This document shows positions 38,056 through 39,264 of a DNA stretch of 64,000 nt, in pieces. This DNA comes from a virus, in the IMG/VR virus record IMGVR_UViG_3300045988_177309, positions 96,170 through 160,169 of that record; one strand, given 5' to 3'. The position numbers and the translations under genes are program-made. The notes beneath the pieces are model-generated. The model was not told the DNA's origin and did not search any database. It saw only the letters and a program-made list of their open reading frames with translations. The stretch's first letter is position 1, and each line of letters opens with the position of its first letter.

Positions 38056-39264
38056 TTAATTAAAAGACTTTATATAATGATCTATTGTATGCGCAATATC
38101 AATAAAGTCATCTTCTGTGTAACCCTTAGTGGTCATTGCCGCAGTACCTATACGTACGCCGCTCGTTTCTTTAGGCTTGCGCTTGTCTCCTGGAATCATA
38201 TTCTTGTTTAAAATAATATGGGCTTCCCTTTCCAATTTTTCTTGTAGCTGTGCTCCACTGCAATTAGCTGCAGCTAAGGAAAGTAAAAACATATGATTAT
38301 CTGTACCACCACTGATAATTTCATATCCCATTTTGATAAATTCATTAGACATCGCTTTAGCATTTTTAACGACTTGATGAACATAATTGCGATATTCATC
38401 AGTCAACGCTTCTTCTCCTGCAATGGCTTTTGCAGCAATTGTATTCATATGTGGACCGCCGGAATTGCCTGGGAATACGGCCTTATCAATGGACTTCGCA
38501 TATTCAGGTTTGCAGAAAATGATTCCGCCCCTTGGGCCTCTAAGAGTTTTTTGGCTAGTCGTTGTAATTACATCTGCCAAACCAAAGGGTGATTGATGAT
38601 CACCTGCTGCAATAAGTCCCGCAATATGAGCCATATCAACCATATAAATAGGTTTGTAATGAATATTATCACGAGCCATAAGATGGTCAGAAACTTTAGC
38701 AATAATGTCAGCAATATGCTTAAAATCTATTTCACGCGAATAGGCACTTGCACCCACTAAAATCAATTTGGGCATATGGGCAAGAAGCATTTGTTCAATT
38801 TCATCATAATTTATATAACCATTTTTGTCTAAGCCATATTGTTTTACATTATAAAACCGGCTTACAAATGACACAGCTGAGCCATGACTGAGATGGCCTC
38901 CAGCGTCAAGCGACATGGAGAGAAGTGTATCTCCAGGCTATAAGAACGCATAATAAGCGCACATATTAGCATGAGAACCAGAATGGGGTTGAACATTTAC
39001 ATGGTAATTAGTATTAAACACTTTGCGATAAATATCACAACAATATTCCTCTATTTCATCATAATTGTCACAACCGCCATAATAACGTCCATTAAGACCG
39101 CAGCCATCATGACGCTCAGCGGGATAGCCTTCACAATATTTATTTGTCAAACAAGAACCAAGAGCTTTCTTTACATTTTCACTAACAAAATTTTCACTAG
39201 CAATAAGCTCAATAGTATTCTTTTGACGTTGCTCTTCTTTTTCTATTATATCAAAAACGCTCAA
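38056..39264 (-). CDS. glyA: serine hydroxymethyltransferase (GlyA); single gene with 1 in-frame TAG (38938-38940)
   Basis: Track ORFs 38938-39264 and 38056-38916 are in one frame, joined by TAG-CCT-GGA-... The result reads AYYAFL(Q)[20 protein letters not shown], matching the SHMT consensus ALL(E/Q)PGDT..GM.L.HGGHLTHGS. Confidence 0.9.

Follow-up and report, generated by a model that had tools for sequence, protein, structure and literature searches.

The 64,000-nucleotide stretch of viral DNA analysed here (the window) carries a glyA gene, and we consider it very probable that this gene encodes a functional phage serine hydroxymethyltransferase (SHMT), that the carrier is a phage of about 170 kb infecting gut Firmicutes (probably Clostridia) and using genetic code 15, that the in-frame TAG of the gene arose by drift, and that the enzyme has a role in dTMP supply. 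The integrity of the gene, the assignment of TAG to glutamine, the tRNA gene and the purifying selection on which this assessment builds were all obtained directly. The gene adds an unexceptional case to two phenomena already known, code-15 phages and phage-borne SHMT, and leaves current concepts unchanged. As by-products, the analysis yielded a TAG/CAG/CAA allelic series, evidence for a dependence of early genes on a suppressor tRNA in this lineage, and a lead towards a ThyX-fold protein.

Table 1. Positions in the window of glyA, its predicted signals and the features associated with its decoding and function
Feature	Positions	Strand	Details	Basis
glyA/SHMT gene	38056-39264	minus	402 codons, TTG start, TAA stop	translation
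In-frame TAG, codon 109, read as Gln	38938-38940	minus	TAG in the window and L006-L009; CAG in L010 and L096; CAA in L001	
Shine-Dalgarno sequence AAAGAGG	39273-39279	minus	8 nt before the TTG; kept in L001, L006, L010 and L096	read from sequence
Sigma-70-type promoter-like sequence TTGACT-17-TATAAT with TG extension	39301-39329	minus	11/12 positions; upstream of glyA	consensus match
Terminator-like 22-bp hairpin	38009-38058	minus	begins at the glyA stop codon; MFE -26.5 kcal/mol, z = -9.4	
Suppressor tRNA gene, anticodon CUA	41669-41743	minus	2.4 kb upstream of glyA	ARAGORN
Consensus sigma-70-type promoter TTGACA-17-TATAAT, TG extended	41785-41813	minus	12/12 positions; before tRNA(CUA)	consensus match
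Intrinsic-terminator-like hairpin and T run	41591-41617	minus	12-bp stem then TTTTTATT; after tRNA(CUA)	
ThyX-fold protein without RHR motif; candidate folate-dependent partner of SHMT	7966-8784	minus		fold comparison

Integrity and predicted expression signals of glyA

As listed in Table 1, glyA lies on the minus strand, a detail missing from the earlier note on this DNA, and it reads from a TTG start codon (39264-39262) to its stop codon with one internal stop, the TAG at codon 109. In the standard-code ORF list the gene therefore appears in two pieces, one of 108 aa with the TTG start (38938-39264) and one of 286 aa that begins at an internal ATG (38056-38916). When glutamine was placed at codon 109, residues 2-394 of the SHMT matched positions 7-399 of the 399-position Pfam profile PF00464 (E = 7.7e-130; 433.5 bits against a cut-off of 27). 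The protein also scored 490.9 bits with NCBIfam NF000586, for which the cut-off is 335, and the best solved structure was the S. aureus SHMT 3pgy (E = 2.8e-114). The description of the gene as a full-length SHMT in the earlier note is thus borne out by family matches that run from end to end.

Since the ORF is broken at codon 109 under the standard code, glyA could also be a pseudogene or nonsense allele from which only a truncated, inactive product is made. However, comparison of the window with the related contigs L001 (an IMG/VR contig of 175,955 bp) and L010 gave dN/dS values of 0.031-0.056 for codons 2-108 and of 0.041-0.065 for codons 110-402. Strong and equal purifying selection acts on both sides of the TAG, and the equally low values exclude a pseudogene. 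The same TAG recurs in L006-L009, four independent ENA contigs that are each about 170 kb long and whose glyA is 98.8-99.3% identical to that of the window at the nucleotide level; its recurrence in these contigs shows that it is no assembly error, and its retention there likewise argues against a nonsense allele. As described below, in-frame TAGs occur in 22 of the 75 minus-strand ORFs of the window and also in DnaE and NrdD of the downstream flank, a cognate tRNA gene is present, and the TAG of NrdD stands at an invariant glutamine, all of which leave the pseudogene reading extremely improbable.

Two public protein records are of note in relation to the gene. The public gene call P0005 of this glyA begins only at Met101. 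The public SHMT P0006 (394 aa) has a C-terminal part that is near-identical to the alleles of this lineage and an N-terminal part that is divergent, a mosaic that suggests recombination within glyA between phages.

The putative promoter upstream of glyA was the second-best minus-strand match in the region scanned (36500-44000), and both of its hexamers are kept in L001, in which the spacer has diverged. In the hairpin at the end of the gene, a G-C pair is changed to A-U in L096 (a contig of 174,861 bp binned with a Clostridium sp. MAG) and in L010, which is a compensatory change, and to G-U in L006. With these predicted signals, which were assigned by matches to consensus and structure, and the Shine-Dalgarno sequence before the TTG, glyA appears to form its own transcription unit.

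Decoding of TAG in the carrier phage

The TAG of glyA is found in the context AFL*PGD, which aligns to L110-E111-P112-G113-D114 of E. coli GlyA. The earlier note had located it at a conserved LL(E/Q)PGD position, and this was accurate for the flanks, where L110 and P112-G113-D114-T115 are invariant, but not for the TAG column itself (E. coli E111), which is variable and contains N (39), D (39), K (24), R (11), Q (6) and S (1) in 120 relatives. Alleles of the sister genomes were compared with the window at this and other sites. The L001 gene, in addition to its glutamine codon at position 109, has TAG as codon 12, which is CAA in the window. Over all shared ORFs, six of the eight TAG differences between the window and its relatives were to CAA or CAG, one was to TGG and one to GAG.

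Contig L015, which represents the flank past the low-coordinate end of the window, encodes DnaE (Pol III alpha, 1286 codons; L015 15449-19309) and NrdD (L015 19883-20941), each with one in-frame TAG, and a GIY-YIG endonuclease comes after NrdD. The NrdD query recovered 80 related phages at 55-77% identity, and the in-frame TAG aligned to Q in 80 of 80 homologues from these other phages. When TAG was counted as a sense codon, the coverage by minus-strand ORFs of 100 aa or more was 81.9% instead of 74.7%, compared with 76.2% when TGA was used as a control. Taken together, the allele exchanges, the invariant glutamine of NrdD, the gain in coding density and the presence of tRNA(CUA) establish, at the level of sequence comparison, that the phage uses genetic code 15 (TAG = Gln), and the same four lines uphold the TAG read-through that had been proposed for this gene.

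The suppressor tRNA gene was detected by ARAGORN in the window, L001, L006 and L010. Its exact sequence is present in L006-L010 and L096, and L001 differs by three changes, one of which turns G27-U43 into G27-C43. The MFE fold of the tRNA is a cloverleaf with a U1-C72 mismatch, G73, a variable loop made up of six U residues, GG in a D-loop of about 8 nt, and the T-loop TTCAAGT. The Rfam model RF00005 did not report it at the gathering score, nor even at E up to 10. The promoter before tRNA(CUA) was the best site in the same scan of the minus strand (36500-44000). A derivation of this tRNA from the phage's own tRNA-Gln(UUG) was considered and rejected, as the two are identical at 40 of 75 positions with no visible descent; its glutamine identity therefore rests on the codon comparisons and not on the tRNA sequence. 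Other tRNA genes are clustered at 44700-45939.

ARAGORN labels this tRNA 'Pyl', as it does any tRNA with a CUA anticodon, and the possibility that TAG is decoded as an amino acid other than glutamine, such as pyrrolysine, could also draw on the many residues tolerated in the SHMT column and on the single differences to TGG and to GAG. However, the glutamine in 80 of 80 homologues at the NrdD site and the prevalence of exchanges from TAG to CAA or CAG argue against any other amino acid, and pyrrolysine in particular is opposed by the GG of the D-loop, the TTCAAGT T-loop and the D-loop length of about 8 nt, as well as by the absence of Pyl-pathway families from Pfam scans of the window proteins. 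These three features are not known from tRNA-Pyl. The chance that TAG specifies another amino acid is in our estimate extremely small.

In this code-15 phage, full-length SHMT depends on tRNA(CUA). The statement of the earlier note that a 108-aa stub is made unless the TAG is decoded agrees with the pieces of the standard-code ORF list and with the evidence for TAG decoding. Standard-code annotation cuts glyA in two, so that metabolic genes of recoded phages are under-counted.

TAG accounts for 52 of the 669 glutamine-type codons (7.8%) in the 75 minus-strand ORFs of the window. The number of these ORFs with an in-frame TAG (22 of 75) is an upper bound, because some N-terminal TAGs come from over-extended ORFs; in ORF 49822-51429, for example, the paralogue aligned only from residue 93. 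No TAG was found in gyrA, gyrB, ligase, DnaB, primase or the vault-like protein. The codon is abundant in the PIN/PhoH-like ORF (7), in two HNH endonuclease paralogues (5 each), in the endolysin (3) and in a methyltransferase (3), and the mobile genes seem to be the most heavily recoded. The two HNH/homing-endonuclease paralogues (40151-41029 and 9754-10515, minus strand), which share 35% identity, have TAG densities among the highest of the window. The base after an in-frame TAG was A in 23 cases, C in 12, T in 10 and G in 7, compared with A in 35, T in 28, C in 7 and G in 5 after true stops, a difference that coding composition could explain. ORF 51170-51796 (minus strand) ends in TAG followed directly by TAA, and this TAG is either the last sense codon or the stop.

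Origin of the TAG at codon 109

In the scheme that we propose, glyA would be transcribed from its near-consensus host-type promoter and carries a strong predicted Shine-Dalgarno sequence, a TTG start and a terminator hairpin, and its codon 109 would be read as glutamine by the phage tRNA(CUA), which has a putative promoter and terminator of its own. In the absence of tRNA(CUA), host release factor RF1 would release a 108-aa fragment, in which Y55, E57 and Y65 are kept and from which the PLP lysine and most of the fold would be gone. The TAG itself would be a synonymous CAG-to-TAG transition that drifted in after the code change. The enzyme would most likely convert serine and tetrahydrofolate (THF) to glycine and 5,10-methylene-THF, for the methylation of pyrimidine C5 (dTMP supply) in phage DNA replication. 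Promoter use, competition with RF1, enzyme activity and the metabolic role are the parts of this scheme that we infer.

Synonymous drift, and not a dedicated switch, is the favoured origin of the TAG. At the window rate, about 0.9 TAG would be expected among the 11 glutamine codons of glyA, and one was observed. Drift is preferred because sister alleles are without TAG or have it elsewhere, because the rate in glyA is that of the window average, and because DnaE and NrdD also contain single TAGs.

The TAG could alternatively be a selected timing gate by which SHMT is made only after the suppressor tRNA has accumulated, as has been proposed for the late genes of recoded phages; recoding has been put forward as a regulator of late and lytic phage genes (Borges et al., preprint). 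The distribution of TAG in the window would suit such a gate, in that the codon is missing from gyrA, gyrB, ligase, DnaB and primase and is concentrated in the endolysin, the homing endonucleases, the methyltransferase and the PhoH-like gene. However, the site is unconserved (glyA of L010 and L096 has no TAG, and that of L001 has it at another codon), one TAG per 11 glutamine codons equals the window average, and DnaE and NrdD need TAG decoding too. Moreover, tRNA(CUA) has a host-type promoter that matches the consensus at 12 of 12 positions, which makes transcription of the tRNA from the onset of infection probable. We consider a timing gate quite unlikely.

The perfect host-type promoter of tRNA(CUA), together with the dependence of DnaE, NrdD and SHMT on this tRNA, underlies another, bolder reading, in which TAG decoding would serve as a checkpoint that has to be passed when infection begins, and not as a late-gene device; separately, the same reading holds that an SHMT with the substitution H228Q and a ThyX-fold protein without the RHR motif (both described below) might constitute a folate-dependent one-carbon route of a non-canonical type, leading for instance to a modified pyrimidine in place of the ordinary dTMP cycle. 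We regard this reading as unlikely, and synonymous drift remains our preferred explanation of the TAG. Sister genomes that carry TAG, CAG or CAA at one codon offer a clean natural experiment in which the spread of stop-codon reassignment into early genes can be followed.

The carrier phage shares with the code-15 gut phages (crAss-like, Lak, Jade/Sapphire/Agate and the phAss-1 group) the presence of in-frame TAG in conserved genes, a phage tRNA(CUA), a large genome, an enrichment of TAG in lysis and accessory genes, and an assumed standard-code host among the Firmicutes or Bacteroidetes. Its similarity is to the phAss-1 group and to the large recoded clades of Borges et al., as judged from genes other than those for terminase or capsid. 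In contrast to the known code-15 phages, it has no nucleotide-level match to deposited phages, and its DnaB is at most 41% identical to that of isolates; when set against them, it is further distinguished by a tRNA(CUA) with a perfect host-type promoter and by TAG in DnaE and NrdD of the flank. For crAss-like phages, metaproteomics has reportedly been used to obtain peptide evidence on the residue at TAG (PMC9523058).

Catalytic residues, thymidylate genes and carrier phage

To compare the catalytic site, the phage SHMT was aligned to E. coli GlyA, with residue numbering verified against 1dfo. Residues identical between the two proteins include Y55, E57, Y65, S97-G98-S99, H126, H129, S175, D200, H203 and T226, and further K229, R235, P258, G262-G263 and R363. 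The lysine that forms the PLP Schiff base (E. coli K229) is K239 of the phage SHMT and is invariant in 120 relatives. The earlier note had held that missing catalytic residues, namely the PLP lysine or the HGGHLTHG motif, would speak against an SHMT. The lysine was found, together with Y55, E57, Y65, H126, D200, H203, R235 and R363, and the motif is retained in the altered form AGGHLSHG. Its first histidine (H123) is A in the phage SHMT and N in 111 of the 120 close relatives; since it is mostly N in these relatives, its absence is not diagnostic.

The residue preceding the PLP lysine is Gln in the phage SHMT and not His, with the E. coli sequence TTTTHK changed to TTTSQK (T227S and H228Q). 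Gln was found at position 228 in seven of the 120 closest relatives and in six of 105 diverse SHMT representatives (about 6%), the 105 being those of 150 representatives with a findable PLP-lysine motif pattern. From this comparison, H228Q is best described as a minor natural variant with no family-defining loss. Relative to E. coli, the phage SHMT has two insertions, of 9 aa and 12 aa, and counterparts (7 or 9 aa, and mostly 12 aa) were found in nearly all 120 closest relatives, including ones that keep THK.

Overall, the protein belongs to the same family as the bacterial GlyA enzymes of E. coli (1dfo) and S. aureus (3pgy), with the same length and catalytic residues and an identity of 44.5% to the former and about 50% to the latter. 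It differs from them in H228Q, T227S, H123A, the 9-aa and 12-aa insertions and one recoded TAG codon, and from E. coli GlyA also in the absence of its C-terminal 23 residues. It is full length, as are the annotated SHMTs of phages (Aeromonas T4-like phages such as AS4, and glyA of Acinetobacter phage MD-2021a) and those of unannotated gut phage contigs. Among deposited phages, 50 records matched the SHMT at up to about 50% identity, and in 44 the match spanned 80% or more of the query. Unlike the window glyA, the relatives P0103 (L011/L012) and P0020 (L013) are free of in-frame stops under the standard code.

The nearest relatives of the SHMT, at about 62% identity, were encoded by gut phage contigs of about 89 kb and by a Firmicutes prophage; cellular homologues reached at most 57% identity. 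In the prophage, the SHMT gene abuts dUTPase and lies near NrdD/NrdG, dNMP kinase and DnaE, and at a further phage SHMT locus genes for ThyA and DHFR are no more than 7 kb away. These relationships fit a long-resident phage gene that may serve deoxynucleotide synthesis, and it is plausible, as the earlier note proposed, that the SHMT supplies one-carbon units for dTMP and purines, the purine role being conjectural. SHMT emerges as a recurrent and long-resident gene in a large group of gut Firmicutes phages, and from its position beside dUTPase, NrdD and dNMP kinase in one of the relatives, the one-carbon supply for DNA synthesis in the gut would seem to be under phage control.

When E. coli ThyA, E. 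coli FolA and T. maritima ThyX were used as tblastn queries, no match was obtained in the window and the flanking contigs L014 and L015 (84 kb, about half of the genome). However, the AlphaFold2 model of one window ORF (pLDDT 83; see Table 1) had exclusively ThyX structures among its best 50 Foldseek matches in the PDB. This ORF belongs to a very abundant unannotated phage family, and relatives of it lie within 10 kb of SHMT in L005 and L013. It has no Pfam match, including to Thy1, and no RHR motif, and a sequence-profile comparison of its family with T. maritima ThyX was not significant, so that the assignment comes from fold comparison as its sole support. A thymidylate cycle of ThyX and SHMT that operates without DHFR is described, for example, in Helicobacter pylori (PMC6294363). 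The phage is similar to this system in having an SHMT and a ThyX-fold protein with no DHFR in the DNA sampled, and dissimilar in that its ThyX-fold protein is without a Pfam Thy1 match, the RHR motif and a significant profile match to T. maritima ThyX. As a hypothesis only, SHMT alone could close the cycle here with a ThyX-type enzyme, because such an enzyme returns THF.

The substitutions H228Q and T227S adjoin the PLP lysine, H228Q and the two clade-specific insertions (9 aa and 12 aa relative to E. coli) could alter reaction specificity, the ThyX-fold protein has no RHR motif, and a canonical thymidylate synthase was not found in the 84 kb sampled. These features would suit an SHMT fold with shifted activity, which together with the ThyX-fold protein could feed a non-canonical route of base modification instead of plain dTMP synthesis. 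However, all other checked catalytic and folate/PLP-site residues are kept, Q occupies position 228 in about 6% of diverse SHMT representatives, similar insertions are present in nearly all 120 closest relatives, including THK-keeping ones, and the search for thymidylate synthase covered about half of the genome. We consider a shifted activity very unlikely and prefer an ordinary SHMT in the service of dTMP supply.

The glyA locus was found on contigs of 162-176 kb from different samples, one of them an IMG/VR viral contig, and the different start points of these recurring contigs suggest a circularly permuted genome of about 170 kb. The window has genes for DnaB, primase, an AAA_24 protein, gyrase A and B and an NAD-dependent ligase. 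Other genes encode a RecJ-like DHH protein, an RNA ligase, an RNase T-like exonuclease, two metallophosphoesterases, an endolysin-like protein and several homing endonucleases, and there are nine tRNA genes. Precomputed Pfam names in the flanks include YorF, SPbeta_YorH, YunG-like, DnaE and NrdD. DnaB was closest to that of Enterococcus phages of about 140 kb (41%), followed by SPbeta/phi3T (37%). A megablast of window positions 30000-50000 against deposited phages gave only tRNA-Gln matches of 59 nt; no structural proteins were found by PHROGs among the window ORFs tested, and Pfam scans of the upstream third gave few matches. The viral contigs, the SPbeta-type replication module, the endolysin, the homing endonucleases and the nine tRNA genes confirm that the SHMT is phage-borne, as the earlier note had stated, and by its gene content the carrier can be described as an uncultured, SPbeta-like, TAG-recoded phage of gut Firmicutes.

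Several other features of the window were observed, all on the minus strand. The gyrB gene is split (15555-18682), with an N-terminal/Toprim ORF (16940-18682), a C-terminal ORF (15555-15902) and a GIY-YIG homing endonuclease between them (15871-16743). A PIN/PhoH-like gene is apparently split as well, into an N-terminal part with seven in-frame TAGs (25720-26619) and a PhoH C-terminal part (20292-20732), and the approximately 5 kb between the two parts (within 20292-26619) contain a radical SAM gene pair, an unrelated 210-aa ORF and six small ORFs. Around glyA (35312-37960 and 41810-43276) there is an RNA-repair-like set of an RNA ligase, an RNase T-like exonuclease and a DUF2828/DUF7788 protein (phrog_850, 'RNA-binding protein'). 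A protein of 814 aa that contains shoulder and repeat domains of the major vault protein (30755-33199) adjoins an SPFH/Band 7 protein (33450-34193), which is unusual for a phage. Finally, three paralogous radical SAM/SPASM-like pairs were found (56987-58249/55609-57006, 49822-51429/48375-49856 and 22480-23805/20789-22174), with 21-45% identity between pairs and weak similarity to RiPP and sulfatase maturases.
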